A stretch of 64,000 nucleotides of DNA from Acidimicrobiia bacterium. GTDB lineage: Bacteria; Actinomycetota; Acidimicrobiia; IMCC26256; JAENVU01. The DNA lies in NCBI GenBank assembly GCA_031422675.1, contig JANPMG010000002.1:4379-68378 (forward strand), given 5' to 3'. Shown in pieces: positions 14,282 through 62,220 of this stretch (positions are counted from its first letter, which is position 1; each line of letters opens with the position of its first letter). The position numbers were made by a program, and so were the translations under genes. Below the pieces are notes generated by a model. That model did not search any database. It saw only the letters and a program-made list of their open reading frames with translations, and was not told the DNA's origin.

Positions 14282-14638
14282 ATGCAGCCGCTCGACATCC
14301 ATCACGTGTCCATCAACGTCGCCGATGTCCCGGCCGCGGTCAGCTTCTATACCGACGTGCTCGGGGCTTCGCTCCGAGATGATCGCCCCGACTTCGGTTT
14401 CGGGGGTGCCTGGCTGGACTTCGGCGGCCGCCAGCTGCACCTCATCGAAGCTCCGGTGCCGGCCAACCACGGGCAGCACTTCGCGGTCCGGGTGGAGGAT
14501 CTTCCGGCCACGGTCGAGGAACTCCGCGGGCGCGGCTTCGACATCACCGACGCGACCCCGGTCGGATCCGGGCTGCAAGCGTTCATGACCGATCCGTCGG
14601 GCAACGCGATCGAGCTTCACCAGGTCGATGTCCGGTAG
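14282..14638 (+). CDS. VOC / glyoxalase-family protein
   Basis: IHHVSINVADVPAAVSFYTDVLG...HFAVRVEDL...FMTDPSGNAIEL. Confidence 0.85.
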   Translation: MQPLDIHHVSINVADVPAAVSFYTDVLGASLRDDRPDFGFGGAWLDFGGRQLHLIEAPVPANHGQHFAVRVEDLPATVEELRGRGFDITDATPVGSGLQAFMTDPSGNAIELHQVDVR

Positions 14639-41145: not shown

Positions 41146-41266
41146 GTCCGAAATATTCACGGACCGATCCTCGCAGAAGAGGGGCGGCGCGGAAGAACGT
41201 TGGAGATCGTTGACCCCGGAGAGGCCCCGTGGTTGACTCATCCGGCGGGCGGGAAAGGACGATCGG

Positions 41267-43267: not shown

Positions 43268-44341
43268 TCAAAGACGTAGTTGCGCACCGCCGGTGATGAG
43301 CGGCAAATCGAGCGGACTCACCGGTCCCGACGGCGCGTCGCACACTGCGGGAATGGCATTCACGATGCGGTTGGCCGCGCTGGCGTTCCCGCCGCCGGCC
43401 GCACCGGGTTCGCCCGGTTCCGTGCCGTGCACGGTGACGGTCAAGTTGGGATGTCCGCTCAGTACGACCCGGTGTTCGCCGCCGGGCGAACTCGACGTCG
43501 GCCAGTCGGGCGCACAGTCGTCGTCGATGCGCGTGACGTGTTCCACCACGAGCGGCGCGCGATCACCGACCATGGCGCGCACCTCGAACCGGAACGCACC
43601 TTGCGTGCCGGCATCGAAGGTACCCATTCCCGGAACGTCGATCGTGCGCGCCAACGGACGACGGTCGACGTGGGTGGTCACCGCGTCCAGTTCCAGGTGG
43701 AGGAAGTCGGCGAGGACCCGCAGCATCGGGGCCCACACCATCTGGAGTGAGAAGTCGAGCAACATCAGCGGCGTCTCGTCCATCGGGCCGCCGAAGCCGA
43801 TCACCTCTCGGACGACGGCAGGCTGGTCGTAGAGCGCGTAGTTGAAGAGTTCTTGGACCCGGATCTCGGTGATCCCCGCACCGACCCCGCTCACGAGGAC
43901 CGGCAGGATGTCCAGTGCCCAACCGGGGTCGATGCCCGACACGAACACGGATGCATTCCCACGCGCGCACGCCGGCTCGACGACGTCGAGCAACTCGCGA
44001 GGCGCGCTCGCCGGGTGCAACAAGGGATAGAAGGACGTCGACACCACGTTGACGCCCGCCTCGAGACACTGCAACAGATCCGCGTAGGCCGCGTCGGGTC
44101 GAGTGTCGGCGGTCGCGGTGTAGACCACCGCGTCGACGTCGGCGGCGAGAGCAGCCTGCGTGTCGTCGGTGGCCACGACACCGAGCGGCGCGATTCCCGC
44201 GAGTTCGCCGGCATCGCGTCCCACCTTCTCGGGGGAGGACACCACAGCGCCCACCAACTCGAGGTCCCGATGCGCCGCAACCGCGCGGATCGCCGGCCGG
44301 CCCACGTTGCCGGTGCCCCACACCACGACTCGGCGGTTCAC
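43268..44341 (-). CDS. NAD(P)-binding DapB-N-domain-like oxidoreductase (dihydrodipicolinate reductase / diaminopentanoate dehydrogenase-like)
   Basis: GTG 44341 overlaps the upstream TGA as GTGA. RVVVWGTGNVGRPAIRAV (Rossmann fold)...NVVSTSF...SGIDPGWA. Confidence 0.75.
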   Translation of the reverse strand: MNRRVVVWGTGNVGRPAIRAVAAHRDLELVGAVVSSPEKVGRDAGELAGIAPLGVVATDDTQAALAADVDAVVYTATADTRPDAAYADLLQCLEAGVNVVSTSFYPLLHPASAPRELLDVVEPACARGNASVFVSGIDPGWALDILPVLVSGVGAGITEIRVQELFNYALYDQPAVVREVIGFGGPMDETPLMLLDFSLQMVWAPMLRVLADFLHLELDAVTTHVDRRPLARTIDVPGMGTFDAGTQGAFRFEVRAMVGDRAPLVVEHVTRIDDDCAPDWPTSSSPGGEHRVVLSGHPNLTVTVHGTEPGEPGAAGGGNASAANRIVNAIPAVCDAPSGPVSPLDLPLITGGAQLRL

Positions 44342-44943
44342 GGTGTCAAGCTCTGCGTTGGGGCTCCCGCCGGGGTGCGCGGCCGCGCGTCCGCGGCCTG
44401 CACGGCGCGAATCACGTCGTCGCCGATGGGGAGTGGCGCACAGCCGTGGGTCTTCTCGCAGACGAGGTCGAACTTGCCCTGCGCCGCGGCGTGGCACGCG
44501 AAACAGTTGCCGCCGAACCGGTTGACCACTTCTTCGCCGCCGCGGGTGTCGATCCTGGTTCCGGTGGAATCGGTGGTGAGGAAGAAGAACTCCCAGTCCT
44601 TGGTCTTCGGGTTGAACCCGGGCCGCCGCTTGACCATCGCCTCTTGCGGGACGAGTTGGATCACACTGCCGACGGGATATTTCCCGCCGGTGGTCGAGTT
44701 GGCGACGGCGAGGGTCGCCTTCAGGTTGCCGAGTGGGTTGGAGACGAAGAACCCGCGGACGGGGGTCATGTCCTTGAGGTTCACGAAGTCGGCGGCCGAC
44801 ATGTTGATGTCTTCGATCGGCTCGGGTGTTTCCACCCGGGGTGCGGTCTTGGGTGCGTCCGAGCCGCACCCGCCGATGACCAAAAAGATCGCGAAACAGA
44901 GCGCGGCGAGCGACAGCCAGGCGGGGCGAAGTGCGGAACGCAT
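44338..44943 (-). CDS. Lipoprotein with a cytochrome P460-like domain and a CxxCH heme-binding motif
   Basis: ATG 44943 follows GGAGGA. The lipobox is LVIGGCGS. YPVGSVIQLVPQE...KDWEFFFL...GGNCFACHAAA. Confidence 0.7.
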   Translation of the reverse strand: MRSALRPAWLSLAALCFAIFLVIGGCGSDAPKTAPRVETPEPIEDINMSAADFVNLKDMTPVRGFFVSNPLGNLKATLAVANSTTGGKYPVGSVIQLVPQEAMVKRRPGFNPKTKDWEFFFLTTDSTGTRIDTRGGEEVVNRFGGNCFACHAAAQGKFDLVCEKTHGCAPLPIGDDVIRAVQAADARPRTPAGAPTQSLTP

Positions 44944-45118
44944 GAAGTCCTCCGAGGTTCCGCCACCGGTGGGGGCGGGCCGCGGAGCGTATCGGCGGGC
45001 CCGTGTCGGCACGGTGTCCGACGCGATTGGGTGATATTTGCTCCCCTGCCCCCCTGCACGTAGGTTGTCGCTTACGGGACGGTTTGTAAGTTTCGGTGGT
45101 GAGTGGCGGGAGGAACCC

Positions 45119-48589: not shown

Positions 48590-50017
48590 TCAGCGGTGGC
48601 GGGTCAACGCCAGCGTCGCCGCGTGGTGGCCGCCCATGCCGTGGACTCCGCCACCGGGAGGAGTCGACGAAGAACAGAGGTACACGCCGTCGAGTGACGT
48701 GGCCCAGGGGTGGAGCGACACGACCGGCCGGGTGAAGATCTGGCGGAGGTCACCGGCACCACCGTTGATGTCGCCGCCGACGTAGTTGGGGTTGTGCGTC
48801 TCCATCGCCACGGTGTTCATCACGTGCCGCGCGAGTACGACGTCGCGGAATCCCGGTGCGAACCGCTCGATCTGGCTCTCCATGGCCTCGGTGCGGTCCA
48901 GCGTTGATCCGTTCGGCACGTGGCAATAGGCCCACGCCACGTGTTTGCCGGCCGGCGCCCGACTCGGATCCATCACCGTCGGCTGCACCAGGAGGGTGAA
49001 CGGCTGCTCGGGATGACCGCCGGTCGCAACTACGTCCTCGGATGCGGTGATCTCGTCAAGCGTGCCGCCGACGTGCACCGTGCCACTCGTTCGGGCGCCG
49101 GGGTTGGTCCACGGGATCGGGCCGTCGAGTGCCCAGTCGATCTTGAACACACCGGGTCCGTACCGGTACCGCGTGAGGGCGCGTCGCGCGTGACCGGTGA
49201 CGCGGTCGCCGGCCATGGCGAGGAACTGGCGCGGCGTGACGTCGAGCAGCGTGATGGGCGCGGGGGGAAGATCGGCGAGATCGGCGACGAGGTGATCCAC
49301 GACGATCTCGCCGCCACCGCGGACGAGAATCGCGCCGAGGGCATCGGCGAGTCGCTGGCTGCCCCCGCGCGCGACCGGCCAACCGTTCGCGTGGGCGAGC
49401 AGGTTGAGGAACAACCCGTAACCCGCAGTCCCGAGGTGGTCCAAGGGTTGGATCGCGTGCGCGGCGGATCCGGCGAGCAGGGCCCGGGGCTCGTCCTCGC
49501 GGAAGTGAGCACGCGCCAGGCCGCGAGCGCTCCGGATCGCGTGACGACCGAACGCCGCGGCGCGGAACGGAGCCCGGGGAAACCGCAGTGGTGAGAGCAG
49601 GGTTGCGACGAGGGTCTCCCGGTGTGCGACGAGTGGTCCCATCAGCGCTCGGTACCGCCGCCCGTCGTCGGGACCGAACGCGGCGGTGGTCGCGCTGATG
49701 TCGCGGTGGAGTAGCGCGGCGCGGCCGCCGTCGAGCGGATGGGCGATGGCGATCTCGGGCGTGCACCACTCGACGCCGTGCGCTTCGAGCGCGAGGTCGG
49801 CAAATGCGGGCGACGCGACTCCGAGCGCCTGCACCGTCGAGCAGATGTCGTGGACGAAGCCGGGCCGGGTGAGTTCGGCCGAACGCATCCCCCCGCCGAT
49901 GACCGATGCTGCTTCGAGGAGCAGCACCCTCCGACCGGCCCGGGCCAGGGTGATCGCACCCACGAGACCATTCGGCCCGGCCCCCACCACGACCGCGTCG
50001 TACTCGCTGGTGCTCAT
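48590..50017 (-). CDS. FAD-dependent oxidoreductase (phytoene desaturase/CrtI-like family)
   Basis: ATG 50017. YDAVVVGAGPNGLVGAITLARAGRRVLLLEA (GxGxxG), with the C-terminal LCSSSTPPGGGVHGMGG. Confidence 0.85.
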   Translation of the reverse strand: MSTSEYDAVVVGAGPNGLVGAITLARAGRRVLLLEAASVIGGGMRSAELTRPGFVHDICSTVQALGVASPAFADLALEAHGVEWCTPEIAIAHPLDGGRAALLHRDISATTAAFGPDDGRRYRALMGPLVAHRETLVATLLSPLRFPRAPFRAAAFGRHAIRSARGLARAHFREDEPRALLAGSAAHAIQPLDHLGTAGYGLFLNLLAHANGWPVARGGSQRLADALGAILVRGGGEIVVDHLVADLADLPPAPITLLDVTPRQFLAMAGDRVTGHARRALTRYRYGPGVFKIDWALDGPIPWTNPGARTSGTVHVGGTLDEITASEDVVATGGHPEQPFTLLVQPTVMDPSRAPAGKHVAWAYCHVPNGSTLDRTEAMESQIERFAPGFRDVVLARHVMNTVAMETHNPNYVGGDINGGAGDLRQIFTRPVVSLHPWATSLDGVYLCSSSTPPGGGVHGMGGHHAATLALTRHR

Positions 50018-50179
50018 GTGGATCTCCGATCCGACCGAGATTGCTGACGTTCCATTCTCGATCTCCATCGTGCGCGAGACGAGTGCGTCCCCATGAACGT
50101 CGACGGTGATGCTGACACCCTCGACTCACGATCATCGGAAAGCGCCGCGATCAGCCGTACCGCGTTCTAACCTCAGCTC

Positions 50180-50842
50180 GTGGCATTTCGGGTCGTCGTG
50201 GCCGAGGACAACTACCTCGTGCGGGAAGGCGTGGTGCGCCTCCTCGATGCGCAGCCGGAGATCGAAGTGGTCGGCGCGTACGAGGACTTCGACACGTTGC
50301 TCGCCGGCGTCGCCGCGGTGCAACCCGATGTCGTGATCACCGACATCCGGATGCCGCCCACCGGGACCGACGAGGGGGTCCGCGCCGCGAATGTACTCCG
50401 AGAGGAGTATCCCGGCATCGGGGTCGTGGTCCTCAGCCAGTACGTGGAACCGGCGTATGCCCTCGCGCTCCTGGAGTCCGGCTCGGATCGTCGTGCCTAC
50501 CTCTTGAAGGAACGGGTCTCGGACGTCGATCTGCTCATCCGCGCCATCGAGGCGGTGGCCGACGGCGGTTCGGTCATCGATCCTCAGGTGATCGACGCCC
50601 TGGTGGCCGCCCGATCTCGCCACCGATCGCCGCTCGATTTCCTCACGCCCCGTGAGGGCGAAGTCCTCACCGAGATGGCACTCGGTCGGAACAATGCCGG
50701 CATCGCCGGCGCACTTGGACTCTCGGAACGCGCAGTCGAGAAGCACATCAACGCGCTGTTCTCGAAGCTCGGCGTCTCGGAAGAGCCTGATGTCCACCGC
50801 CGCGTGAAAGCGGTGTTGCTGTGCCTTTCGGAGCAATCGTGA
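50180..50842 (+). CDS. NarL/LuxR-family response regulator
   Basis: GTG start. VVVAEDNYLVREGV...VVITDIRMPP and the LuxR HTH LTPREGEVLTEMALGRNNAGIAGALGLSERAVEKHI. Confidence 0.92.
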   Translation: MAFRVVVAEDNYLVREGVVRLLDAQPEIEVVGAYEDFDTLLAGVAAVQPDVVITDIRMPPTGTDEGVRAANVLREEYPGIGVVVLSQYVEPAYALALLESGSDRRAYLLKERVSDVDLLIRAIEAVADGGSVIDPQVIDALVAARSRHRSPLDFLTPREGEVLTEMALGRNNAGIAGALGLSERAVEKHINALFSKLGVSEEPDVHRRVKAVLLCLSEQS

Positions 50843-50960
50843 GCGGCGGCACGCCCCGCAGTCGGCTCACCAGGTCGGCGGCGTCGGGGGTACTGGCACC
50901 CCCGACCCGGGCCACACGGGCACGGTTCCCCCGGTGACCGACTCACGCGACGATGACGCC

Positions 50961-51335
50961 ATGACGGCGGTTCCCGTGCTCATTGTCGACGACCAAGTGC
51001 CGTTCCGACGCGCCGCACGGATGGTCGTCGCGGTCACGCCCGGCTTCGAGGTGGTCGGCGAGGCGACGTCGGGCGAGGAAGCGGTGGAGCAGTTCGAGAT
51101 GCTGGAACCCGGGCTCGTCCTCATGGACATCAACCTGCCCGGGATCAGCGGCATCGAAGCCACGCGTCGGATCACCGAGTCGCATCCGGACGCAGTGGTC
51201 GTCCTGCTGTCGACCTATCGGGCCGATGATCTCCCGGCCGACGCCGCGACCTGCGGCGCCGCGGGCTACGTGAACAAGGAACAGTTCGAATCGGCCGTGG
51301 TCGTCGACCTTTGGGCGCAACGCAACCGCCCCTGA
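50961..51335 (+). CDS. Stand-alone receiver-domain (CheY-like) response regulator
   Basis: MTAVPVLIVDDQVPFRR...LVLMDINLPGISG...VVVLLSTY...GYVNK. No output domain. An alternative start is GTG 50934. Confidence 0.88.
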   Translation: MTAVPVLIVDDQVPFRRAARMVVAVTPGFEVVGEATSGEEAVEQFEMLEPGLVLMDINLPGISGIEATRRITESHPDAVVVLLSTYRADDLPADAATCGAAGYVNKEQFESAVVVDLWAQRNRP

Positions 51336-51357
51336 GGGGGCCGGGTGCGTCGCTGGT

Positions 51358-53511
51358 TCAGGCTTCCGGCAACGGGACGCGTCCACTGACCGTGGTGCCG
51401 CGACCGGGCGCGGATTCCACCTCGACCGAGCCGCCGAACGCACCGACCCGGTCGGCCATGTTGACGAAGCCGTGTCCGTGGGCGCCACCACCGGTCGAAT
51501 CGAACCCGGCGCCGGTGTCGCGCACGGCGAACAGCAACGCGCCCTGGTCCTCGCGGAGCGAAACCGTGATGTGGGCTTCGGCACCGGCGTACTTGCTCGC
51601 GTTCTGAAGCGCTTCGAGGCAACAGAAGTAGATCGCAGCCTCAACCGGTTGGGAGTAGCGGTCGACTCCCTCGGCCTCGACGCGGGTGGGGAGCGGGACC
51701 CGATCGCCGGCGGCCCGCAACGCATCGGGCAGACCGCGGTCCATGAGCAGCGGGGGATAGATGCCGTGCGCAAGATTGCGCAGTTCCTGCACCGCGTCCT
51801 GGAGGTCGCCGGCGATCTGGTCGAGCATCTCCTTGGTTGCGTCCGGATCCGAGTCGGCGAGTTGACGGGCCAGCCGGGTGCTGACCGCGAGTGCAACGAG
51901 ATGTTGCTGGGCGCCGTCGTGGAGATCCCGCTCGATGCGTCTCCGCTCGCGGTCGGTCGCCTCGACGATGCGGGCTCGGGAACGGCGGAGTTCGTCGGCT
52001 TGGCGTCGGACCTCGTCGAGCGAGTCCTGAAGGGCCGAGTCCAGTTTCAAGTTGTGAAGCGCGAGCCCGACCTGGCGGGCGAGCTCGGTGAGGGCACGAT
52101 CGTCCTCGTCGTCGAAGCCGGCCGCGCCGAGCGCGCGGGTCACCATGATCACGCCGAGGAGCTCGCCCGAGTTGGTCACGGGCGCGATCCGAATCGGAGG
52201 TTCGTCACCGTCGGGGAACGGCTCGAGGAACCTCGGCATCCACACCCGGATCCACGCCGGCCCGGACACCCCCGCGTGCGCGATAACGCCGAGTTCCTCG
52301 GGGCCGATCGGGAGCTGGGCGTGACCGCGGTCGGGGACCGATACCGATCGTTCCAACTGACCGCCGTTGCGGGTCCAGACTTCGGCCAGGTCGAGTCCCA
52401 TCGTCTTCTTCAGTGATTCGGCGAGTTGGAGAAGGAGTTCGTCGAGCGGGAGGGCGCGGGTGAGCCGGCTCCCGAAGGTCCGGATCACCTCGTCGGGAGC
52501 GTGCTGCTCGCCGTAGACCCGTCGATTCGCGTAGTCGCGGAGCCGTTCCCGCGCGGGGACCCACAGGAGCGCGGCGGTGGCGGCTCCGGCGATCGAGAGT
52601 CCGAGCACGCTGCGCTCGCCGGCGTCGAGCGAACGGCCGAGTACGGCGATCACTCCGAGGGTCACCACCCCGACAACCGCGGCGAGACCGCCAATGGTGA
52701 TGGTGCTCACGAGCAGCCGGTCGATGCGCACCGCGAGGGTTCGGTAGGCGCCGAGCGCGAGGGAGATCGGTACGAGAATCGTTGAAGCCACCGCCACCGC
52801 GAGGAGCGCTCTTGGCCAATGGACGACCGCATCGAGCAGCACCGCACCGGCGCTGATACCCGCGGCCGCGATGGTCGCCCAGGCCGGCCACTGCAACCGG
52901 GCGCGCTCAGCTTGGGTGCGCGCGCGTTGGCACCGACCCACGTAACCGACCACGCCGATGACCAACGCCGAAGCGGCGAGTCCGACGATTCCGGCCCACC
53001 GAAGATGGGGCCGGTCGACGAAGAGCCATCCGGCGACGACCGCGCCGACGAGATAGCCCGCCGCGGTCCAGGTTCGCCGGATTCGACTGTCGAGCCGGCC
53101 GTCGGGCAGTCCGAGGACGAGGTGAAGGCCGAGTGGCGCCAAAGCCGTGATCCCGATCACGCGTGCCAGCGCCACCGCCTCGTTGGATGGATGACGAGCA
53201 AACTCGGCGGCACCGAGCATGGCCAGGGCGATAGCGCCACCGACGAGCGTGAGGAGTCCCGCAAGGGGTTCGCCGGGCCGTTCGAAGCTCACCAGGAGGG
53301 CGGCGCCACACCAGGTGAGCGCGACCGCGAGTAATACGCCGCGCCCGGGTCCGAGGCGGGCATCGGTCGCGTCGAACGTGGCGACGATCGCGGCCGCGAT
53401 CGCCAAGACTGCGCCGAGCCGGACGAGCGTGGTTCTCCCGGTCGCGGAGTTCGAGGCCGGCGCCGGGTCTCGGAAGCTGGTGAGGTCGAGCGGCGTGTCG
53501 ATGCGGCTCAC
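51358..53511 (-). CDS. Polytopic membrane sensor histidine kinase (about 10 TM + GAF-like + HisKA_3 + HATPase)
   Basis: About 330 aa of TM helices, then a GAF-like segment (LDLAEVW...ELLGVIMVTR), the H-box RRRIERDLHDGAQQHL, and the ATPase region ALQNASKYAG...DTGAGFD...GHGFVNMADR. Confidence 0.9.
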   Translation of the reverse strand: MSRIDTPLDLTSFRDPAPASNSATGRTTLVRLGAVLAIAAAIVATFDATDARLGPGRGVLLAVALTWCGAALLVSFERPGEPLAGLLTLVGGAIALAMLGAAEFARHPSNEAVALARVIGITALAPLGLHLVLGLPDGRLDSRIRRTWTAAGYLVGAVVAGWLFVDRPHLRWAGIVGLAASALVIGVVGYVGRCQRARTQAERARLQWPAWATIAAAGISAGAVLLDAVVHWPRALLAVAVASTILVPISLALGAYRTLAVRIDRLLVSTITIGGLAAVVGVVTLGVIAVLGRSLDAGERSVLGLSIAGAATAALLWVPARERLRDYANRRVYGEQHAPDEVIRTFGSRLTRALPLDELLLQLAESLKKTMGLDLAEVWTRNGGQLERSVSVPDRGHAQLPIGPEELGVIAHAGVSGPAWIRVWMPRFLEPFPDGDEPPIRIAPVTNSGELLGVIMVTRALGAAGFDDEDDRALTELARQVGLALHNLKLDSALQDSLDEVRRQADELRRSRARIVEATDRERRRIERDLHDGAQQHLVALAVSTRLARQLADSDPDATKEMLDQIAGDLQDAVQELRNLAHGIYPPLLMDRGLPDALRAAGDRVPLPTRVEAEGVDRYSQPVEAAIYFCCLEALQNASKYAGAEAHITVSLREDQGALLFAVRDTGAGFDSTGGGAHGHGFVNMADRVGAFGGSVEVESAPGRGTTVSGRVPLPEA

Positions 53512-53553
53512 GGGTGCGCGTCTCCGAGCCGCACTGGGGTCGAAGATTCCACG

Positions 53554-54270
53554 TCAGACCGAGGCGGGATCGCGCGTGGAATCGCGGATCTCGGTGTCGG
53601 TCTCGATGCGACCATCGCGCATGAACACGATCCGATCCCCCGCTTCGGCCACATCCCGGTCATGGGTCACGAGCAGGATGGTCTGGCCGTTGGCATGGAG
53701 TCGACGGAACAGTTCGAGCACCTCGTGCCCACCCTCGGAGTCGAGCGCGCCGGTCGGCTCGTCGGCGAGGAGCAGCGTCGGTTCGTTGGCGAGGGCGCGC
53801 GCGATGGCGAGCCGCTGTCGTTGCCCGCCGGAGAGGACCCCGGGCGCGTCCTTCGCCTTCTCGGCGAGGCCGAGCAGGTCGAGGAGATCCCGAGCCCGGG
53901 TCTCGGCTTGTTTGCGGGGCGCACCGGCGATGACCGCCGGGAGCGTGACGTTCTCGAGCGCGGTCATCCCCTCCAGGAGATTGAAGAACTGGAACACGAT
54001 CCCGATATGGCGGCGACGCATGATCGCGAGTTCGTCCTCGGTCTGGCCGATGAGGGACTCCCCGGCCACTTCGAGCGTGCCGTCGGTGGCGGCGTCGAGT
54101 CCGGCGACCAAGTTCAACAAGGTCGATTTCCCACACCCCGACGGCCCCATGACGGACACGAAGTCGCCGCGGTGCATCTCGAAATCGACGCCGCGCAGCG
54201 CCCGCACCGGGGCACCTTCGGACTCGAAGTTCTTGCGCAGTCCCTGGGTCCGTACGACGACGTCAGTCAC
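53554..54270 (-). CDS. ABC transporter ATP-binding protein (MacB/LolD/FtsE-like), with no adjacent permease gene
   Basis: Walker A GPSGCGKST, Q-loop, signature LSGGQRQR, Walker B LLLADEPT and H-loop VTHD. Confidence 0.92.
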   Translation of the reverse strand: MTDVVVRTQGLRKNFESEGAPVRALRGVDFEMHRGDFVSVMGPSGCGKSTLLNLVAGLDAATDGTLEVAGESLIGQTEDELAIMRRRHIGIVFQFFNLLEGMTALENVTLPAVIAGAPRKQAETRARDLLDLLGLAEKAKDAPGVLSGGQRQRLAIARALANEPTLLLADEPTGALDSEGGHEVLELFRRLHANGQTILLVTHDRDVAEAGDRIVFMRDGRIETDTEIRDSTRDPASV

Positions 54271-54325
54271 GAAAATGCCCTTCTGGTTCGGCGGTTTGGT
54301 TCGGCGGTGCGGTCTGTGGTTCGAG

Positions 54326-55633
54326 TCATGGTCCGAGTCCTTCGATGCGGAACGCGCGGACGGGGGTCTGGCGACCCTTCACGAGCTGCTCGCCGAGGTC
54401 GTCATGCGCCGGCACGGTCTCGAGCGCGTCGAGGGTCGACTTCGCGACGACAACACAGCCGGCCGGTCGAGCCAGATCCTGGAGTCGTTGCGCCAAGTTC
54501 ACCGTGTCGCCGACGAGCGTGTACTCGAGGTGCTCTTCGGATCCGAGCATCGCCGCGGCGACGAGACCGGTGGAGATTCCGATTCCGAGTCCGAACGGTG
54601 CGAGGCCGCGCTGCGCCCAGTCGCCATCGAGTTCGACCTGGGCGCGGATCATGGCGAGCGCAGCGTCGAGACCGCGCTGCGCGTGGCTCGGTTGAGGAAC
54701 GGGCGCACCGAAACATGCCATCACCGCGTCCCCGACGAACTGCATGACCGTGCCGTCACGGTCGAGGATCGCCCGGTTCATCGCGGCGCGATGTTCGTTG
54801 AGCTGGCCGGCGAGCGCGCTCGGGTCCGCCTGCTCGGCAATGGCCGAGTAACCGCGTACGTCCGACATCAACACCGTGACCGTCAACTCCTCGGTCTCGC
54901 CGATCCGGCCGCCCCCGGCGCGAACTTTCGCGGCGACGCCGGTCGGCAACGATCGACTCAGTGTCTCGCCCTGCTCTTCGCGATCGACGATCGCTTGGTG
55001 GAGGAGACGGAGCCGGCGCAACGCGCTGGATCCCCCTGTCCTGGCTTCCTCCGAGAGCTTGACGAACATCGCTTCCACCGCAGTTGCGATCGCGGCCGGC
55101 GTCGTGCGCTCCATTGCCGCGATGGCCTTGATCGGCTTGCCCTCGGCGACGAGTTGGAGCAGCCGATCCTGCTCTGCGCTGAGGCCGCTGTCCTGCGCGA
55201 CAGGCGAGACGATCGCGGCGACGATCTTGGGGTCGAGCAGCGATCCGCCCGCCGCGACTTCGCGCACACTCCGCGCGAGCTGGTCGCCCTCCGCGATGCT
55301 GTCCTTCAGAAGGTAGGCGTAGCCCGCGGCACCGTCGGACAGCAACGCCACCGCGTACTCGGGGTCGTCGTACTGGGACAGGACCACCACCCCCATGCCG
55401 GGGTGGCGGCGGCGCAGCTCCTTGGCCGCATCGATGCCCTCCTGCTGGAACGTCGGTGGCATCCGAATGTCGGTGACCAGGACCTGGGGCGCGGCGTCGG
55501 TTGCACCGGTCATCAGCGTTTCGTAGTCGCCGGCGACGCCGACGATCTCGATGTCGGATTCCATGGTCAGGAGCGCCCGCACGCCCTCCCGGACGATGAC
55601 GTTGTCGTCGGCGAGGAACACACGGATCGGCAC
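54326..55633 (-). CDS. Response regulator receiver + LuxR-like HTH + class III adenylate/guanylate cyclase fusion
   Basis: REC: IRVFLADDNVIVREGV...VLVTDIRMPP. HTH-like: LSAEQDRLLQLVAEGKPIKAIAA. Cyclase: VTVLMSDVRGYSA...MQFVGDAVMACFG...YTLVGDTVNLAQRL...VKGRQTPVRAF. I prefer the GTG 55633 start; the alternative, ATG 55789, adds 52 disordered residues. Confidence 0.85.
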   Translation of the reverse strand: MPIRVFLADDNVIVREGVRALLTMESDIEIVGVAGDYETLMTGATDAAPQVLVTDIRMPPTFQQEGIDAAKELRRRHPGMGVVVLSQYDDPEYAVALLSDGAAGYAYLLKDSIAEGDQLARSVREVAAGGSLLDPKIVAAIVSPVAQDSGLSAEQDRLLQLVAEGKPIKAIAAMERTTPAAIATAVEAMFVKLSEEARTGGSSALRRLRLLHQAIVDREEQGETLSRSLPTGVAAKVRAGGGRIGETEELTVTVLMSDVRGYSAIAEQADPSALAGQLNEHRAAMNRAILDRDGTVMQFVGDAVMACFGAPVPQPSHAQRGLDAALAMIRAQVELDGDWAQRGLAPFGLGIGISTGLVAAAMLGSEEHLEYTLVGDTVNLAQRLQDLARPAGCVVVAKSTLDALETVPAHDDLGEQLVKGRQTPVRAFRIEGLGP

Positions 55634-55787
55634 CCGATCAGCATTCCTGCTCGGCGCGGCCGGAGCAAGGTGGTTCGTGCCCGCATCCGTGGTGGGGCTA
55701 TCACCCCCACGATGTTGGGGCTTGCGCCCTCGATCGCGGGCCGGCTCGGCCGTACCGTGAGCTTCGCCGGCCCTGGAGGGAGACGAC

Positions 55788-56786
55788 ATGCGTATCGAGA
55801 GTTCGGTCACATCCGTTTCGTGGATCCCGTCCGAAGCCGTGAGCGGCTTGAACAGGGGAGCCTTCGAATCTGGGTTCACGCACTACGACAACCCCCCGCC
55901 GGAGCGGATCGCGAACCTCGCTGCGCTCGGTGACGCGGACGGGTTCCGGTTCGCCAACCGGCTCGCGGCGTGGATCGACGTCGACGCCGATGGCCGGATC
56001 GCGGACGCGGGTTACGCCGGTGGGGGTGTGATGGGGGCGACCACGATTCGTCTCGGTCCGAAAGCCGCGACGTTCGAAGCGGTTGCCCTCGATGATCTCC
56101 AGACTGATGTGGTCCGCCTCGGACACGCGGTGCGCTTCGTGCAGACGACGGGCGGCAGAACCGCGCTCCCGGCGCCGCGTCGCGTCAACCGGCCACCCTT
56201 CGTGCAGTTCCGGGCGCCGACGGTGTGGACCACGCTCGCGCTCACGATCCGCACCGACGGAACGACCGAACACGAGGTGGTGGGCGCGAGCAAGTTCCCG
56301 CGCCACTGGATCTATGACGCGCGCCTCGAGCTGGTGGAGAAGATCGGACTCGCGGACTTCAAGGGGTGGTACCGCAACTCGTTCGGGCGCAAGACGCCGT
56401 GGGGGAATGAGAACTCGCCGGCGCTGGTGACGGCGGTCGAGACGGCACTCGAGCGACGCCTCTCCACCACGATCATGCGCGGTGGCACGAAGCCCGACGT
56501 GCGGACGGTGAAGGCCGGTGCGACGCTGGTCAGACAGGGTGACCCCGGGGACGAGTTGTTCCTCGTCCTCGACGGCGTGCTGCGGGTCGATGTGGACGGT
56601 GTGGCCATCGGCGAACTCGGCCCGGGTGCGGTGCTCGGCGAGCGGGCCGTGCTCGAAGGGGGTACCCGAACCTCCACCTTGACCGCGGCGACGAAGTGTC
56701 GGATCGCGGCGGTGCCGGCGGATCTCCTGGACCGTGAGGCTCTCGAAGCCCTGCGCACCGGCCACCGCCGCGAGGCGAAGGATTGA
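55788..56786 (+). CDS. Protein with an N-terminal domain of about 235 aa (unknown function) and a C-terminal cyclic-nucleotide-binding (CAP/CNB) domain
   Basis: The C-terminus, VKAGATLVRQGDPGDELFLVLDGVLRVDVDG..IGELGPGAVLGERAVLEGGTRTSTLTAATKCRIAAV, matches the cNMP-binding beta-barrel with a phosphate-binding cassette. The N-terminal part has no motif I recognise. Confidence 0.8.
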   Translation: MRIESSVTSVSWIPSEAVSGLNRGAFESGFTHYDNPPPERIANLAALGDADGFRFANRLAAWIDVDADGRIADAGYAGGGVMGATTIRLGPKAATFEAVALDDLQTDVVRLGHAVRFVQTTGGRTALPAPRRVNRPPFVQFRAPTVWTTLALTIRTDGTTEHEVVGASKFPRHWIYDARLELVEKIGLADFKGWYRNSFGRKTPWGNENSPALVTAVETALERRLSTTIMRGGTKPDVRTVKAGATLVRQGDPGDELFLVLDGVLRVDVDGVAIGELGPGAVLGERAVLEGGTRTSTLTAATKCRIAAVPADLLDREALEALRTGHRREAKD

Positions 56787-56949
56787 CTCGACTCACTGAT
56801 CTCGACGAACCGTATGAATCGGATGAAACCCGATGAAAAGCTCTCCCCATAAATGGGGATATCGGCCTATCTAGTGCGTACAGCCCGAGACAGTTGGAAC
56901 CCGACAAACGTACTATCGACTCCTTCTTCGGGCGATAGGGAGTTTGTCA

Positions 56950-59900
56950 GTGGTTGGTACAGCACGTCGTCTCTTCGCGGCCTTCGCCGGTGCGACCGTC
57001 GTTCTCTCCGGGCTGGCGGGACTCGGACTGGCGGGACTCGGGCCGGTCGGAGTCGGGCCGGCCGGCGCGGCGCCGACCGCCGGGATTCCGTCATTGTCGC
57101 TGAATCGCGCGTACACCACGGCACCGTTCGCCGGTACTGCAACCGCCGCGTCGGGGCAGGAGGGTTCCGCCTTCGTCCCGGCCGACAACGCGGTGTGGTT
57201 GGCGGACCCCACTAAGGCGTACGAAGTGGACGCCACCACCGACGCGTTGCGGCGGGTCATCCCGACCGCGAACTTCACCAACGCGCTCCCGGTCGGGGGG
57301 GTCGGTGCACCCGCCGGCGCCAGCCGCAGTGATTCCTTCGCCGCGGTGGCGTACGACCCGAGCGCGGACGCGCTCTATGTGTTCTCGCGCAACTGTTGCA
57401 CCGCGCTCGGCCTGGACCCGACGGTGTTCCGCCTCCTGCGGGACGGCGGCGGCGCGTTCCAGGTCGAGTCGTATCAAGCCCTGCCCGCGGGTATCGACCC
57501 GAAGGGTGCCGGCTACCGCGCCGGCGTCGGCCTGTACTTCGGCAAGGGCGCCAAGATCCGGACGTACGACTACGCGACGAACGGCCTCGGCGCCGACATC
57601 ACCATCCCCGGCATCGATGCCGCCGTCGGCGGTATGGCGTTCTCGCCGGACGGCAACGACCTGTACCTCACCACGTTCGTGGCTGCGGTCAGTCCCAACC
57701 CGGCGAGCATCAAGCTCGTGCGAATCAACACCGCCACGTGGACGGTCGTGCCGAACTGGAATCTCGACCTGACGTCGTTCGGTGTCCTCGACCCCCGGGC
57801 GGTCGAGCTGGTGGGTGACCAGATCTACGTCTCCGACGGCGGTGCTCGTCCGGCCGGCGATCCGTTGCGGCGGGCCGTCTTCGTGTTCGACGTGTTGGAC
57901 CTGAGCGTCCAACCGACCGCATCCTTCAGCGCCACCCCGGTCGCGGGTCAGTTCCCGCTTCCGGTGCAGTTCAGCGACACGAGTCAGGGCGGTCCCACGA
58001 GTTGGGCATGGGACTTCGGCGACGGCGCCACGTCGAACCTCACGAACCCGACCCACACCTACGCCGTCGCCGGGAGCTACACGGTCACCTTGACTGTCAC
58101 GAACTCGAAGGGCACCGACACCTCGACCCGGACGGATCTCGTCACGGTCCAGGATCAGCTCCCGATCGCGGGCTTCACCGCCACCCCGACCACCGGCCAG
58201 TACCCGCTGGCGGTCGACTTCACCGACACGAGCGTCAAGCACCCGATCTCCTGGGCGTGGGACTTCGGCGACGGTTCGACGTCGACGGCGCAGAACCCGT
58301 CACACACCTACGCCAATCCCGGCAACTACGCCGTGTCGTTGACCGTCACCAACGGCACGGGCTCGAACACGCGCGTGCGCTCGGACTTCATCCACGCCGT
58401 CGCCGGTACCACCACGTTGACGCCCGTCGCGGACTCCTACGTGCGCTCGGACCAGGCCAACGCGAACTTCGGGACCCAGACCACGCTCCAGGCCCAGTTG
58501 AACTCAGCGTCGTACCAGCCGTTCGTCCGATTCGATGTTGGTTCACTTCCGCAGCAGCCCACCAGCGCGACGCTGCGATTGTTCGTCACCGACTCGGGTA
58601 CGACGACCGGGGTCCTGCGCCAGACCACCGCGACCTGGGGTGAGGCGGCCCTCACGTGGAACAACAAGCCGTCCACGACCGGGCCACAGATCGGGACCGC
58701 CGCGGTTCCGACTGCGGGGTCGTGGGTCGAACTCGACGTGAGTTCGGTGGTCACGACCGCGGGCGCGTACGGCTTCGTGCTGACGAACAACAGCTCGGAC
58801 CCGGTCGCCTATTCGAGCCGTCAGGGCGCAAATCCGCCCCAGCTGCGACTCACGTTCGCCACCGCGCCGACGACCAACCTCCCGAACCCGCCGAATGTCG
58901 GGCTGCGCCTCAACCGCGCGTTCACCACGTCGCCGTTCCGCGGCACCGCGACGTCGGCCCGTGACGAAGAAGGTTCGGCCTACGTCCCGTCCGACAACGC
59001 GCTGTGGCTCATGGACGACAACGCCGGTCGCATGTACGAGACCGATGCCACCACCGGTGATCTGCGCCGCGTGATCCCGACCGCCGACTTCACGAATGCC
59101 TTGCCGGTTGGCGGCGGTGCCGCAGCGGGACCGACGCGTACCGACGACCTCGAGTCGTTGTCCTATGACCCGACCACCGACACGCTCTACGTTGCAAGCG
59201 GCAACTGTTGCGGGGTCGCGCCGTTCAACCCCACGATCTTCGAACTGACTCGTGACGGCGCCGGCCGATTCCAGGTCAAAGACTTCAACGCGCTGCCCGA
59301 AGGCACTGATCCCACCGGCTCGGCGTGGCGCGCCGGTCCCGGCGGCGGGATCCACTTCGTCAAAGGTCAGAACATCACCCCGTACGACTTCGCCACCAAC
59401 ACGGTCGGGACCCCGATTCAGGTCCTGGGTGTGGATGTCGGGCTCGTGGGTGCAACGTTCACCCCCGACGGGCAAGATCTGCTGGTCACCAGTCACCTGA
59501 ACAAGCTCTACCGGGTGGACCCCTCCACGTGGAGCGTCGTCCCCGGCTGGTCCTTCGACCTGACGCCGTACGGCATCGTCGATCCGCGCGCGGTCGAGGT
59601 CGTCGGTGACCAGTTGTTCATCTCCGATGGGTACGACTCCCGCCCGGTGGGCGACCCACTCCGCTACGCGATCTTCGTGCTGGACATCGTCGACGGCTCG
59701 GACGCGCCGGTGGCTGGATTCACCGCGTCGCCCACCTCAGGCATTGCGCCCCACGTAACCACCTTCACCGATCGCAGCACCGGGGTCCCGACCGTGTGGC
59801 TGTGGAACTTCGGCGACGGCACTTCCTCCGTGGAGCAGAACCCGGCGCACTCCTACCGCGACGCGGGCACCTACAGCGTCACGCTGACGGTGACGAACTC

Positions 59901-62220
59901 CAAGGGCACCGCGACCACCACCCAGACGGACCTGGTGACGGTCGCCGTCAACCCGCCGCTCCTCAACGCGAAGTTCACCGGCACGCCGACCTCGGGGGTG
60001 GCCCCGCTGGCGGTCCAGTTCACCGATGCCAGCGTCGGCGGAGTCACCGCCTGGGCGTGGGACTTCGGTGACGGATCCACGGAGACGGTTCAGAATCCCA
60101 CGCACGTGTACGCCGCCAACGGCACGTACACGGTGAAGCTCACGGTCACGTCGGCGAGCGGCACGAACACCCGTATCCGTTCGAACTACGTGAACGTGGC
60201 CGCGGCACCCGTGACCCTCGCCGCCGCCGCCGATAGCTACGTGCGATCGAACGCGACCGGGTCGAACTTCGGTACCGAAGCCTCCGTCCAAGGTCAGAAC
60301 ACCGGTGGCCGGAACGCGGTCGTCTACCAGCCGTACTTCCGGTTCTCGGTAGGAAGCCTGCCCGCCGCGCCGACGAGTGCGAAGGTCCGCCTGTTCGTCA
60401 CCAACGCGAGCGCAACGAGCGGTCAGCTCTTCCGGACCGCCTCGGCCACCTGGTCCGAGACCGGGATCACGTGGAACAACCGGCCCGGAACCACGGGCGT
60501 GTCGCTCGGCGCAAGCCGCAACGCGCCGCTCGGCCAATGGGTCGAGTTCGACGTGAGTTCCACCGTCACCGGGCCCGGCCAGTACAGCTTCACGCTGACC
60601 AACTCGAGCAACGACCTGGTGGCGTACTCGAGTTGGCAGGGCGCGAATGCACCCCAGCTCGTGCTGAGTTTCCCGGCCCCGACGACGAGTGGGGGACTTC
60701 CCGCGCTCGCCACGCCGAGTCTGGCGTTGAGCCGCACGTTCACCGCCGCACCGTTCTCGAACACGAGCGTGCTCGCGCACGACCTCGAGGGTTCGGCCTA
60801 CGTTCCGGCCGACGACGCACTCTGGCTCTCGGACGACAACTGGGACCGCGCCTACGAAGTGGACGCGACCACGAGCATCCTGCGCCGCACGCTCGCCCGA
60901 TCGGACTTCTCCGAGGCGCTGCCGGTCGGTGGCGTGGGCGAGCCGGCCGGTCTCAGCCGGACCGACGATCTCGAGTCCATAGCGTATGACCCCGTCGGCG
61001 ATGTGCTGTACCAGTTCTCCGGGAACTGCTGTGGCGCGGGTCCGATGGATCCGACCGCGTTCCGCCTACTGCGCGACATCGACGGCAACTTCCAGGTGGA
61101 GTCGTACCAACCGTTGCCCGAGGGGACCGACCCGACCGGCGCGGGATGGCGTCCCGGAAGTGGCCTGTTCTTCACCCACGGCGGCGGTGTCGCCGACTAC
61201 GACTACGCGTCCAACACCGTCGGCGCCACCAACCTCGTGACGGGCGTCAACGGCGGCATGGCCGGCGTGACCTTCACGCCCGACGGCACACAGATGATCG
61301 TCGTCACCACGACCGATCGGTTGCAGGTGATCGACGTCGCGACGTGGACCGTGATGCCGGGGCTCGACTTCGATCTCGCGCCCCACGGAGTGGTCGACCC
61401 TCGGGCCGTGGAACTCGTGGACGGCCAACTCTTCGTCTCCGATGGCGACGACCTCCGCTCGCCCGAGGATCCGCTGGAGTACGCCGTCTTCGTCTTCGAC
61501 CTGGCCGAGGCCCCACCCTCGCCGGAGTTCACCGCCACGCCCACCTCCGGTGCCGCACCGCTGACGGTGCAGTTCACGGACGCGACCATCGGTGTCGCGA
61601 CCGGTCGGATCTGGGACTTCGGTGACGGCACGAGGTCGATCGCGACGAACCCGTCGCACGTGTACACGTCGGTCGGTCAGTACACCGTGTCACTGGTGGC
61701 GGCGAACGCGAACGGTTCGAACACCGTGACCAAGCCGAATCTGATCAGGACGACGTTCGCTCCAGTGACCACGACTGCGGTGGCGGACAGTTACGTGCGC
61801 TCGGACCGGTCCAGCTCGAACTTCGGCACGGCCACCACGATGCAGGGCTACCGGAAGGGCGGCACCACGTACGAGCCGTACTTCCGGTTCTCGGTCGGCG
61901 CGTTGCCTGCAGCACCGGTCACGGCCAAGGTCCGGCTCTTCGTGACGGACTCGAGCAATGTGACGGGTTCGCTCTATCGGTCGGCGAACACTACGTGGAC
62001 CGAGACCGGAATCACGTGGAACACGCGACCCGGCACGATTGGCGCAGCGCTGAGCGCGAGCAAGAACGCGCCACTCGGCCAGTGGGTGGAGTTCGACGTG
62101 ACGACGACGGCCACCGCCGCCGGTGAATACAGCTTCACCCTCACCGGTGCCGGCACCAACCGGGTGGCGTTCTCGAGCCGCCAGGGTGCCAACGGGCCGC
62201 AGCTCGTCCTCGGTTTCTGA
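56950..62220 (+). CDS. Giant secreted protein: 3 x [beta-rich module + PKD domain(s) + DNRLRE-like carbohydrate-binding-type domain]
   Basis: GTG 56950 follows the RBS agggag; the ORF track starts at TTG 56944. The N-terminus is signal-like. PKD signatures (WDFGDG..S....P.H.Y...G.Y.V.L.V.N) occur 5 times. DSYVRS...NFG...Y.P.FRF.V.SLP......A.LRLFVT........TW.E..ITWN..P domains occur 3 times. Confidence 0.9.
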   Translation: MVGTARRLFAAFAGATVVLSGLAGLGLAGLGPVGVGPAGAAPTAGIPSLSLNRAYTTAPFAGTATAASGQEGSAFVPADNAVWLADPTKAYEVDATTDALRRVIPTANFTNALPVGGVGAPAGASRSDSFAAVAYDPSADALYVFSRNCCTALGLDPTVFRLLRDGGGAFQVESYQALPAGIDPKGAGYRAGVGLYFGKGAKIRTYDYATNGLGADITIPGIDAAVGGMAFSPDGNDLYLTTFVAAVSPNPASIKLVRINTATWTVVPNWNLDLTSFGVLDPRAVELVGDQIYVSDGGARPAGDPLRRAVFVFDVLDLSVQPTASFSATPVAGQFPLPVQFSDTSQGGPTSWAWDFGDGATSNLTNPTHTYAVAGSYTVTLTVTNSKGTDTSTRTDLVTVQDQLPIAGFTATPTTGQYPLAVDFTDTSVKHPISWAWDFGDGSTSTAQNPSHTYANPGNYAVSLTVTNGTGSNTRVRSDFIHAVAGTTTLTPVADSYVRSDQANANFGTQTTLQAQLNSASYQPFVRFDVGSLPQQPTSATLRLFVTDSGTTTGVLRQTTATWGEAALTWNNKPSTTGPQIGTAAVPTAGSWVELDVSSVVTTAGAYGFVLTNNSSDPVAYSSRQGANPPQLRLTFATAPTTNLPNPPNVGLRLNRAFTTSPFRGTATSARDEEGSAYVPSDNALWLMDDNAGRMYETDATTGDLRRVIPTADFTNALPVGGGAAAGPTRTDDLESLSYDPTTDTLYVASGNCCGVAPFNPTIFELTRDGAGRFQVKDFNALPEGTDPTGSAWRAGPGGGIHFVKGQNITPYDFATNTVGTPIQVLGVDVGLVGATFTPDGQDLLVTSHLNKLYRVDPSTWSVVPGWSFDLTPYGIVDPRAVEVVGDQLFISDGYDSRPVGDPLRYAIFVLDIVDGSDAPVAGFTASPTSGIAPHVTTFTDRSTGVPTVWLWNFGDGTSSVEQNPAHSYRDAGTYSVTLTVTNSKGTATTTQTDLVTVAVNPPLLNAKFTGTPTSGVAPLAVQFTDASVGGVTAWAWDFGDGSTETVQNPTHVYAANGTYTVKLTVTSASGTNTRIRSNYVNVAAAPVTLAAAADSYVRSNATGSNFGTEASVQGQNTGGRNAVVYQPYFRFSVGSLPAAPTSAKVRLFVTNASATSGQLFRTASATWSETGITWNNRPGTTGVSLGASRNAPLGQWVEFDVSSTVTGPGQYSFTLTNSSNDLVAYSSWQGANAPQLVLSFPAPTTSGGLPALATPSLALSRTFTAAPFSNTSVLAHDLEGSAYVPADDALWLSDDNWDRAYEVDATTSILRRTLARSDFSEALPVGGVGEPAGLSRTDDLESIAYDPVGDVLYQFSGNCCGAGPMDPTAFRLLRDIDGNFQVESYQPLPEGTDPTGAGWRPGSGLFFTHGGGVADYDYASNTVGATNLVTGVNGGMAGVTFTPDGTQMIVVTTTDRLQVIDVATWTVMPGLDFDLAPHGVVDPRAVELVDGQLFVSDGDDLRSPEDPLEYAVFVFDLAEAPPSPEFTATPTSGAAPLTVQFTDATIGVATGRIWDFGDGTRSIATNPSHVYTSVGQYTVSLVAANANGSNTVTKPNLIRTTFAPVTTTAVADSYVRSDRSSSNFGTATTMQGYRKGGTTYEPYFRFSVGALPAAPVTAKVRLFVTDSSNVTGSLYRSANTTWTETGITWNTRPGTIGAALSASKNAPLGQWVEFDVTTTATAAGEYSFTLTGAGTNRVAFSSRQGANGPQLVLGF
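57100..62217 (+). repeat. Three tandem intragenic modules (about 1809, 1818 and 1491 nt)
   Basis: The modules start at LNRAYTTAPF (57100), LNRAFTTSPF (58909) and LSRTFTAAPF (60727). By eye they are about 50% identical at the protein level. The third lacks one PKD domain. Confidence 0.85.

Follow-up and report, generated by a model that had tools for sequence, protein, structure and literature searches.

Six signaling genes that recur together in related genomes were found at positions 50180-56786 of a 64,000-nucleotide stretch of DNA (here called the window) from an Acidimicrobiia bacterium (contig JANPMG010000002.1, assembly GCA_031422675.1). They encode a NarL-type response regulator, a stand-alone receiver, a polytopic sensor histidine kinase with a GAF domain, an ATP-binding cassette (ABC) ATPase, a fusion of a response regulator with a class III cyclase, and a cyclic-nucleotide-binding (CNB) protein. 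With moderate confidence we favor the reading that these genes form a conserved, probably self-regulating signaling cassette of Acidimicrobiia, in which the kinase would address the regulator as well as the cyclase fusion, and the latter would in turn address the CNB protein. The evidence for this reading is computational and consists of the domain content, the integrity of the catalytic and phospho-acceptor motifs, the paralogy, the synteny and the recurrence of a palindrome. The Acidimicrobiia are abundant in soil and water and mostly uncultured, and their signaling is essentially unstudied. The cassette is among the most conserved signaling loci of the class, and it is a compact locus in which the division of a two-component system into transcriptional and second-messenger branches can be tested.

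Synteny was examined in one genome per species (GTDB species representatives). At least 592 stretches, screened solely by tblastn at E <= 1e-3, contained a relative of the cyclase fusion, and the best 80 of these, taken with 10-kb flanks, were searched by tblastn with the proteins of the window. Within the best 80 of the at least 592 stretches, the cyclase is 62-86% identical and the CNB protein mostly 50-78%. Partners were counted in loci with enough flanking sequence, namely 74 upstream, 58 downstream and 56 on both sides. A CNB gene was present anywhere in the locus in 63 of 74 loci, and was divergent from and adjacent to the cyclase gene in 49 of 74. The lone receiver was detected in 52 of 58 loci, the NarL regulator in 51 of 58, the ABC ATPase in 39 of 58 and an orthologous kinase (at least 40% identity) in 33 of 58; all five partners were present in 26 of 56. 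The pair of regulator and receiver stays with the cyclase in 50 of 58 loci, whatever the type of kinase. The co-occurrence in related genomes on which the original prediction depended was therefore observed, and the cassette is taken to be real, since its partner genes co-occur across related species.

All six genes are present and intact, with coding-type GC content at third codon positions (GC3, 0.81-0.85) and with the domains that had been predicted for them (Table 1). The window has about 68% GC with an even composition along the 64 kb, and its closest protein matches are from metagenome-assembled genomes of Acidimicrobiia. Coordinates and strands confirmed that the CNB gene is transcribed divergently from the cyclase gene, with a spacer of 154 nt between them. 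The open reading frame (ORF) of the cyclase is real, but its extent as first called, to 55879, was wrong: it is over-extended, an overlap with the CNB gene would result, and the conserved start is the GTG at 55633, which gives a protein of 435 aa. On the minus strand the gaps are 55 nt between the cyclase and ATPase genes and 42 nt between the ATPase and kinase genes, and no convincing terminator was found between the three. A single cyclase-ATPase-kinase operon fits, because the gaps are so short and the genes lie on the same strand. On the far side of the kinase gene lie the genes of the regulator and the stand-alone receiver, both pointing toward it.

The cyclase fusion is identical to the database protein P0001 (100% identity, full length), and its homologs start at the same residue. 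It consists, in order, of a NarL-type receiver, a degenerate LuxR-type helix-turn-helix (HTH), a helical linker with an LLPxxVA motif and a class IIIb-like cyclase domain. Comparison with the neighboring regulator by BLASTP gave 42% identity over 200 aa (E 5e-45) and 51% (61/119) over the receiver only, near the 55% that had been estimated by eye, and hhalign gave a probability of 99.95% across cyclase residues 3-194, i.e. through the HTH. Residues 3 to about 200 also matched DevR, NarL and VraR in the PDB, the best match being DevR 3c3w (3.4e-21, residues 3-202). Judged from these alignments, the fusion is a whole NarL-type regulator joined to a class III cyclase. The proposed origin of the cyclase from a paralog of the regulator holds as far as the fusion is concerned, but a plain gain of a C-terminal cyclase does not describe it, as a degenerate HTH was kept between receiver and cyclase, and by this HTH the origin of the two branches from paralogs can still be recognized. 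The HTH-like segment is conserved within the family; Pfam GerE gave no match to it even at E 5, and its recognition helix reads TPAAVAxAVE where the regulator has RAVEKHI, and contains no conserved basic residue. Because the basic and polar residues of the recognition helix are gone and GerE is undetected, we infer that this HTH has lost DNA binding and has become a structural link. The helical stretch that follows it ends in LLPTGVAxKV, which we take to resemble the 'LLxxxLPxxVA' transducer motif preceding class IIIa/b catalytic domains.

The catalytic domain of the fusion (residues 246-430) found its top PDB matches in two class IIIb enzymes, CyaB of P. aeruginosa (3r5g, 3e-25) and CyaC (1wc0, 4e-23). 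Retention of the catalytic residues had been set beforehand as a test, and all of them were found in 81 of 81 family sequences: the metal-binding Asp pair D258 and D302, together with N379 and R383, is invariant and aligns with the equivalent positions of both structures. Lys419 in the VKGR motif, presumably phosphate-binding, is also invariant in all 81. The Asp pair, Asn and Arg thus lie in one chain, as in class III nucleotidyl cyclases of the homodimeric type. The second substrate residue, at position 372, is Thr in 57 and Ser in 24 of these sequences. The phospho-acceptor pocket of the receiver is likewise conserved in the 81 sequences, with one D9-to-E exchange at the first acidic position.

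The kinase carries an H-box (HDGAQQ at 531), an N-box (EALQNASKYA at 633) and a G1 box (DTGAG at 665), i.e. the H-box histidine of HisKA_3 and the N and G boxes of HATPase_c that characterize a two-component kinase of this family. Its N-terminal part contains 9-10 hydrophobic segments within residues 28-320 (about 10 transmembrane helices), for which no Pfam match was obtained. That this membrane domain is the permease of the ATPase was considered and rejected, as it has neither FtsX nor any Pfam similarity and relatives encode separate FtsX permeases. In the NarL regulator the acidic pocket, D55, S86 and K109 were located by direct reading, and the receiver with these phospho-acceptor residues is followed by a GerE/LuxR HTH, the recognition helix of which (RAVEKHI) is at least 80-95% conserved among 52 orthologs. 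Direct reading of the lone receiver, whose top NCBIfam matches are NarL/UvrY-type receivers, revealed the DD pair, D65, the S/T and the K, so that the phospho-acceptor pockets are intact in all three receivers. The lone receiver is 26-29% identical to the other two. In the BLASTP alignment, the alpha1 helices of the regulator and the cyclase-fusion receivers are near-identical, and a kinase common to the regulator and the fusion fits for this reason. None of the cassette proteins reached an NCBIfam equivalog cut-off for any named system. The names MctRS and MadRS, which arose from NCBIfam matches, were rejected because those systems have no relation to the cassette, or a distant one at most; MadR and MadS matched far below their cut-offs (110 vs 300 bits and 41 vs 500 bits, respectively; for MadRS see PMC12262736).

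The spacer between the cyclase and CNB genes contains three conserved blocks at fixed spacing (52 loci aligned; core derived from 35, core length 74-77 nt). The outer blocks are mirror images (GCCTGCxCCCTTG), symmetric around a central 18-bp palindrome, and probably hold two -35 regions, an assignment that is tentative. A palindromic position weight matrix was built from the cyclase/CNB spacers of other species, with the sequence of the window left out. In the 64-kb window the central palindrome received the top palindromic score (18.8 bits), and it scored on both strands (19.6 and 18.9). Among the sites that reached 13 bits in related loci, 40 were located at the equivalent position. The second-highest site of the window lies between the genes of the regulator and the lone receiver. 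This spacer had not been used in matrix training; in 83% of 52 loci its score exceeded the 95th percentile of the background, and it contained 30 of the 139 sites of at least 13 bits in 1.31 Mb while accounting for about 0.4% of that sequence. A weaker site precedes the NarL regulator, and comparable sites were found upstream of NarL orthologs in 35% of 51 loci vs 5% in the background, which lends it weak support. The recurrence suggests that the palindromes are a common operator, and the NarL regulator, with its highly conserved recognition helix, is the best candidate for its binder. Distances from palindrome to coding anchors were too scattered to be used, as N-termini vary and the regular expressions were narrow. 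Moderate matrix scores were also obtained for GGTGGTGCCGTCCCACCC at 29345-29362 (12.0 bits, within the ORF 28136-29554) and for GGTGTTGGTGGCCCCCCA at 2437-2454 (11.0 bits, just within the start of the SpoU methylase ORF, 2426-2932), and these two may be chance.

The conserved intergenic blocks might instead be read as a structured, riboswitch-like RNA in the 5' untranslated region of the cyclase operon. Hairpins seen by eye in some sequences, apparent compensatory changes and G-U pairs that occur only on the cyclase sense strand would agree with this, but RNAalifold gave no consensus pair in 35 sequences, Rfam gave no family at E <= 5, the spacing is fixed and symmetric around the palindrome, the palindrome is found again in another intergenic region, and transcription likely starts downstream of the conserved blocks. 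A structured RNA in this spacer (55634-55787) was rejected on these grounds, and we regard it as improbable in the extreme. The Rfam search of 50000-57200 at E <= 5 returned nothing except a Guanidine-III match within the kinase coding region (52459-52516, minus strand; 17.3 bits vs a gathering score of 36, E 4.1), which was taken as chance.

The CNB gene starts at an ATG that is preceded by a Shine-Dalgarno sequence (GGAGGGAG), and its Met1 is conserved in homologs. The phosphate-binding cassette of the CNB domain (G284, E285, R294 and T295) is invariant in 20 homologs. The beta-roll and the G-E ... R-T/S/A cassette that define such domains are both present, and Foldseek matches to CNB domains had a probability of 1.0. 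It is inferred from these features that the protein binds a cyclic nucleotide, which makes it the candidate receptor of the cassette. The Arg-Thr pair does not settle the ligand, because it is present in cAMP- (cyclic AMP) as well as cGMP-binding (cyclic GMP) domains. The fold search with the full-length model returned CNB domains alone, including those of PKA/PKG regulatory proteins, HCN, MloK1 and M. tuberculosis CRP. The protein has neither an HTH nor a membrane segment, and the chain ends about 17 residues past the CNB domain, so that the CRP/FNR order of a CNB domain followed by a C-terminal winged HTH is absent. A homolog, P0219, is recorded as 'putative transcriptional regulator, Crp/Fnr family'; this name looks over-annotated and is unsupported, because the family has no DNA-binding domain. 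Residues 1-235 contain dozens of invariant residues and gave no Pfam match even at E 5. The family of this N-terminal domain comprises 1253 representative clusters, and most of its members are about 330 aa long, a length that implies the same two-domain build. An AlphaFold2 (AF2) model of the domain alone is beta-rich (pLDDT 73, pTM 0.73), and its sole significant fold match is 3c5p of Bacillus anthracis, to which no function is assigned (E 3e-5, TM-score 0.43-0.52).

A class III-type cyclase beside a CNB protein with a second, non-DNA-binding domain also resembles the core pair of the Pycsar anti-phage systems; in such a system the cyclase would answer infection with a cyclic (pyrimidine) nucleotide, and the effector, the CNB protein, would arrest or kill the cell. 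The PADLOC models of PycC matched the cyclase (best 1.6e-19) and those of PycTIR and other effectors matched the CNB domain (1.3e-8), PycTIR is among the PDB matches of the CNB domain, and a non-canonical Gln in the cyclase (see below) leaves the product open. The PADLOC scores, however, are no better than those of the generic Pfam domains (78 and 65 bits), the matches cover only the shared domains, and the effector part is neither TIR nor transmembrane, having no hydrophobic segment and no Pfam match. Moreover, the two genes are divergent and do not form an operon, the cyclase has a receiver of its own and lies among genes for a kinase and a regulator, and 62-86% identity in conserved synteny across many species, with even composition, is unlike patchy defense islands. 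Membership in Pycsar was rejected for the generic domain matches, the missing TIR or transmembrane part, the divergent genes and the conserved synteny, and a Pycsar-like function is highly improbable.

A gene for a metallo-beta-lactamase-fold hydrolase was observed directly behind the CNB gene in 44 of the 80 loci, for example at L047:7963-8814 (minus strand, 283 aa), where it shows Pfam Lactamase_B_2 and an HLHWDH motif. Its PDB similarity to the zinc phosphodiesterases RNase Z/ElaC is weak, and the hydrolase is a candidate for a phosphodiesterase of cyclic nucleotides. No such hydrolase was found by tblastn in the 64-kb window, and it is also lacking in the closest relatives (L001-L008).

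The ABC ATPase has complete Walker A, Q-loop, LSGGQ, Walker B and H-loop motifs, and its best NCBIfam models are MacB (2e-65) and LolD (3e-63), each below cut-off; its orthologs in the 39 loci are 70-90% identical. An FtsX/MacB_PCD permease was encoded within 10 kb in 36 of the 39 ATPase-bearing loci vs 0 of the 19 ATPase-free ones (Fisher 2e-12), and the kinase type of the window was present in 33 of 39 vs 0 of 19 (Fisher 2e-10). The permeases of relatives are either about 795 aa long with two FtsX halves or about 400 aa (e.g. L004:12218-14605 and L025:13590-15974, both on the plus strand), and in L004 the 795-aa permease is encoded between the ATPase and kinase genes. The ATPase had been described as an orphan. 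This is correct in that no permease lies within the 64 kb, but it belongs to a permease-linked subtype of the cassette. The most economical reading is that the ATPase is part of a MacB-type transporter tied functionally to the kinase, as in Bce-type modules, with the permease elsewhere in the genome.

Several observations weigh against the proposed cassette, beginning with the cyclase. The position of the adenine-specifying Lys is occupied by Gln298 in 80 of 81 sequences (GTVMQFVGD vs GTVDKFVGD/GTIDKFVGD of CyaC/CyaB), so that the canonical Lys-Thr pair of class IIIb adenylate cyclases is absent, and the activity or the product of the fusion may be unusual. The product nucleotide cannot be read from the sequence, and cAMP is not to be assumed, because this Lys is Gln. 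The M. tuberculosis cyclase Rv0386 reportedly has Gln at the same substrate-specifying position. Rv0386 is active as an adenylate cyclase and makes cGMP as a side activity of about 20% (PMC4452763, citing Castro et al. 2005), and the fusion cyclase is probably active, since this Gln-bearing enzyme is. No relevant paper was found on a characterized close homolog of the cassette proteins or on receiver-HTH-cyclase fusions. It might be argued from the family-wide change of Lys to Gln that the cyclase domain is inactive or merely dimerizing, and that the fusion works chiefly in transcription or as a sink for phosphate, and binds the palindromes by its HTH in place of the NarL regulator; the HTH-like segment was kept and conserved between receiver and cyclase, and with two paralogs and one palindrome family the assignment of the sites is open. 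Such a role is very unlikely, given the silence of GerE, the recognition helix without a conserved basic residue, the activity of Rv0386, and the two Asp, the Asn, the Arg and Lys419, whose invariance would be unexpected in a dead domain.

The other observations on this side concern the make-up and control of the locus. Half of the well-covered loci miss at least one partner, and there are two cassette subtypes, with about one third of the loci having two other GAF kinases in place of the ATPase and this kinase. The kinase-receiver wiring is therefore not fixed. The alpha1 helix of the lone receiver differs from those of the other two receivers, and the lone receiver may serve another kinase. 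When 11 permease queries were run by tblastn, no FtsX-type permease was detected in the 64-kb window. The counts and the Fisher tests overstate independence, because the loci share ancestry. A scan of 49900-57100 for sigma-70 consensus promoters found none; the tentative promoters, TTGCTC-17-AATGCT before GTG 55633 and TACCGT before the CNB gene, match sigma-70 poorly, and the proposed -35/-10 assignment follows from cross-species conservation only. As an alternative binder of the palindrome, a CRP-type factor would fit because the palindrome core reads GTG-N8-CAC.

The locus could also consist of separate modules lying side by side, namely an ABC-linked two-component system of kinase, regulator, receiver and ATPase, and an independent cyclase/CNB pair under another kinase. 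The cyclase-CNB pair is kept in loci without this kinase and ATPase (19 of 58), some loci have the CNB gene or the regulator pair at a distance of several kb, and modules of an ABC ATPase, FtsX, a HisKA_3 kinase and a NarL regulator are common on their own. This arrangement is nevertheless unlikely, since the regulator/receiver pair accompanies the cyclase regardless of the kinase, the same palindrome is present at the cyclase/CNB and the regulator/receiver regions, the closest paralog of the cyclase receiver is the neighboring regulator with its near-identical alpha1, and the cyclase, ATPase and kinase genes are closely spaced on one strand.

In the cassette that we favor, the polytopic GAF/HisKA_3 kinase would sense a membrane or envelope cue, and in this subtype a MacB/FtsX-type ABC transporter, of which the locus encodes the ATPase alone, is likely coupled to the sensing. 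The kinase would phosphorylate the two paralogous NarL-type receivers. In the first branch, the DNA-binding NarL regulator would act on GGTG..CTAG..CACC palindromes in the cyclase/CNB spacer and before the lone receiver gene, and would thereby exert feedback on the cassette. In the second branch, the phosphorylated fusion would dimerize, and the signal would pass via the helical linker (LLPxxVA) to assemble the homodimeric class III site. The cyclic nucleotide, for which cAMP would be the default that the Lys-to-Gln change leaves open, would then be bound by the adjacent CNB protein, which would act through its N-terminal domain. The lone receiver is probably a competing phosphate acceptor or connector that modulates the flow of phosphate. 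A more far-reaching form of this circuit, closed, autoregulated and specific to Acidimicrobiia, would have a non-cAMP product (cGMP, mixed purine or pyrimidine), a new effector in the N-terminal domain of the CNB protein (an enzyme or an interaction module), the hydrolase as phosphodiesterase in many relatives, and the state of a MacB-type transporter fed to the kinase; we consider it quite unlikely as a whole. Should the circuit model prove wrong, a set of ordinary signaling genes, correctly annotated, would remain.

The cassette combines known kinds of systems, such as receiver-regulated class III cyclases and modules of two-component and ABC proteins; it is conserved and uncharacterized, and unsurprising in principle. 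CyaC of Spirulina/Anabaena (class IIIb) resembles the fusion in its IIIb-type catalytic domain, the Thr at the second substrate position and the receiver upstream, and phosphotransfer to the CyaC receiver reportedly activates the enzyme. CyaC, however, is a hybrid with its own kinase core and two receivers, whereas the kinase of the cassette is a separate polytopic protein, and the fusion has a NarL-type receiver followed by a degenerate LuxR HTH, and Gln for the adenine-binding Lys. Rv0386 (Mclx1) also unites a class III cyclase and a LuxR-type HTH in one protein and shares the Gln, but its second substrate residue is Asn, not Thr as in the fusion. It has the cyclase first and the HTH last, possesses an AAA ATPase and lacks a receiver, and the HTH of the fusion, unlike its own, is degenerate. 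The architecture of Rv0386 was reported as confined to Mycobacterium (PMC3466318). DevS/DosT-DevR (DosRS) is similar in its kinase of GAF, HisKA_3 and HATPase_c domains and its receiver-GerE regulator. The cassette differs from DosRS by about 10 membrane helices, a single GAF domain without evidence of heme, and a pathway that branches to a lone receiver and a cyclase. The palindrome bound by DevR is G-rich with an A/T center; the layout of the candidate operator resembles such a palindrome, the binding here being a proposal. In ABC and two-component modules of the Bce/Mad and MacB types, the gene of a MacB/LolD-type ATPase likewise lies beside that of a sensor kinase, and in Bce-type systems the transporter is required for the kinase to sense its cue. 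In contrast to these modules, the cassette has no permease in the window, a large membrane domain with GAF instead of a minimal two-helix sensor, and NarL-type regulators. The CNB protein shares the canonical cNMP_binding domain and the intact phosphate-binding cassette with CRP/FNR and other CNB receptors; unlike CRP/FNR it has no DNA-binding domain, and a 235-aa beta-rich domain without a Pfam family precedes its CNB domain. Three points are of biochemical interest: how a Gln/Thr class III cyclase selects its substrate, what a widespread CNB-linked domain outside any assigned family does, and whether a MacB-type transporter informs a GAF kinase.

Table 1. Genes and candidate control elements of the signaling cassette and an adjoining gene in the 64-kb window.
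Feature	Position	Strand	Details
NarL/LuxR-type response regulator	50180-50842	+	220 aa; Pfam Response_reg 2.1e-13, GerE 1.7e-12
Stand-alone receiver	50934-51335	+	predicted 133 aa; Pfam Response_reg 1.3e-22, no other domain
Polytopic GAF/HisKA_3 sensor histidine kinase	51358-53511	-	717 aa; Pfam HisKA_3 2.1e-17, HATPase_c 4.4e-12, GAF 1.4e-5
MacB/LolD/FtsE-type ABC ATPase	53554-54270	-	238 aa; Pfam ABC_tran 2.6e-33
Response-regulator cyclase fusion	54326-55633	-	435 aa; Pfam Response_reg 6.5e-16, Guanylate_cyc 7e-22
Divergent control region, cyclase operon/CNB gene	55634-55787	.	three conserved blocks, fixed spacing
CNB protein	55788-56786	+	332 aa; Pfam cNMP_binding 5.6e-18, residues 239-315
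Central 18-bp palindrome GGTGGGGCTATCACCCCC, family consensus GGGGTGGCTAGCACCACC	55691-55708	.	candidate shared operator; 18.8 bits
18-bp palindrome GGGGGTACTGGCACCCCC, between regulator and lone receiver	50886-50903	.	candidate operator; 13.7 bits
Weak palindrome-like site GGTGATGCTGACACCCTC, upstream of NarL regulator	50105-50122	.	10.0 bits, fifth in window
FAD/NAD-binding amine-oxidase/phytoene-desaturase-like oxidoreductase	48590-50068	-	Pfam NAD_binding_8, Amino_oxidase; cassette membership uncertain

Other genes of the window were also inspected. The large secreted protein downstream of the CNB gene (56944-62220, plus strand; 1758 aa) consists of three repeats of a large module and contains 3 CBM96/DNRLRE and 5 PKD domains. 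The original prediction had named it as a possible target of the cassette, which was not supported: it lies beside the cassette in 0 of 80 loci, and its upstream region is without an operator-like site. Two further class III cyclases had been predicted, and both are present by domain, making three cyclase-domain proteins in 64 kb: one at 14628-18527 (plus strand) with Guanylate_cyc, AAA_16 and TPR domains, which is Rv0386-like but without a LuxR HTH, and an Rv1264-like one at 42176-43246 (plus strand) with Ad_Cy_reg and Guanylate_cyc. Coding-type ORFs without a Pfam match at E <= 1e-4 are located at 62988-63899 (plus strand), 43853-45034 (plus strand) and 39853-41361 (minus strand). The oxidoreductase that adjoins the NarL regulator in the window has a homolog (at least 45% identity) no more than 10 kb from the cyclase gene in some 21 of the 80 loci, in relatives mostly behind the CNB gene and the metallo-beta-lactamase-fold hydrolase, and it may be an output gene of the cassette. 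A second, ordinary pair of a HisKA_3 kinase and a NarL-type regulator is encoded at 9032-10992 (minus strand).

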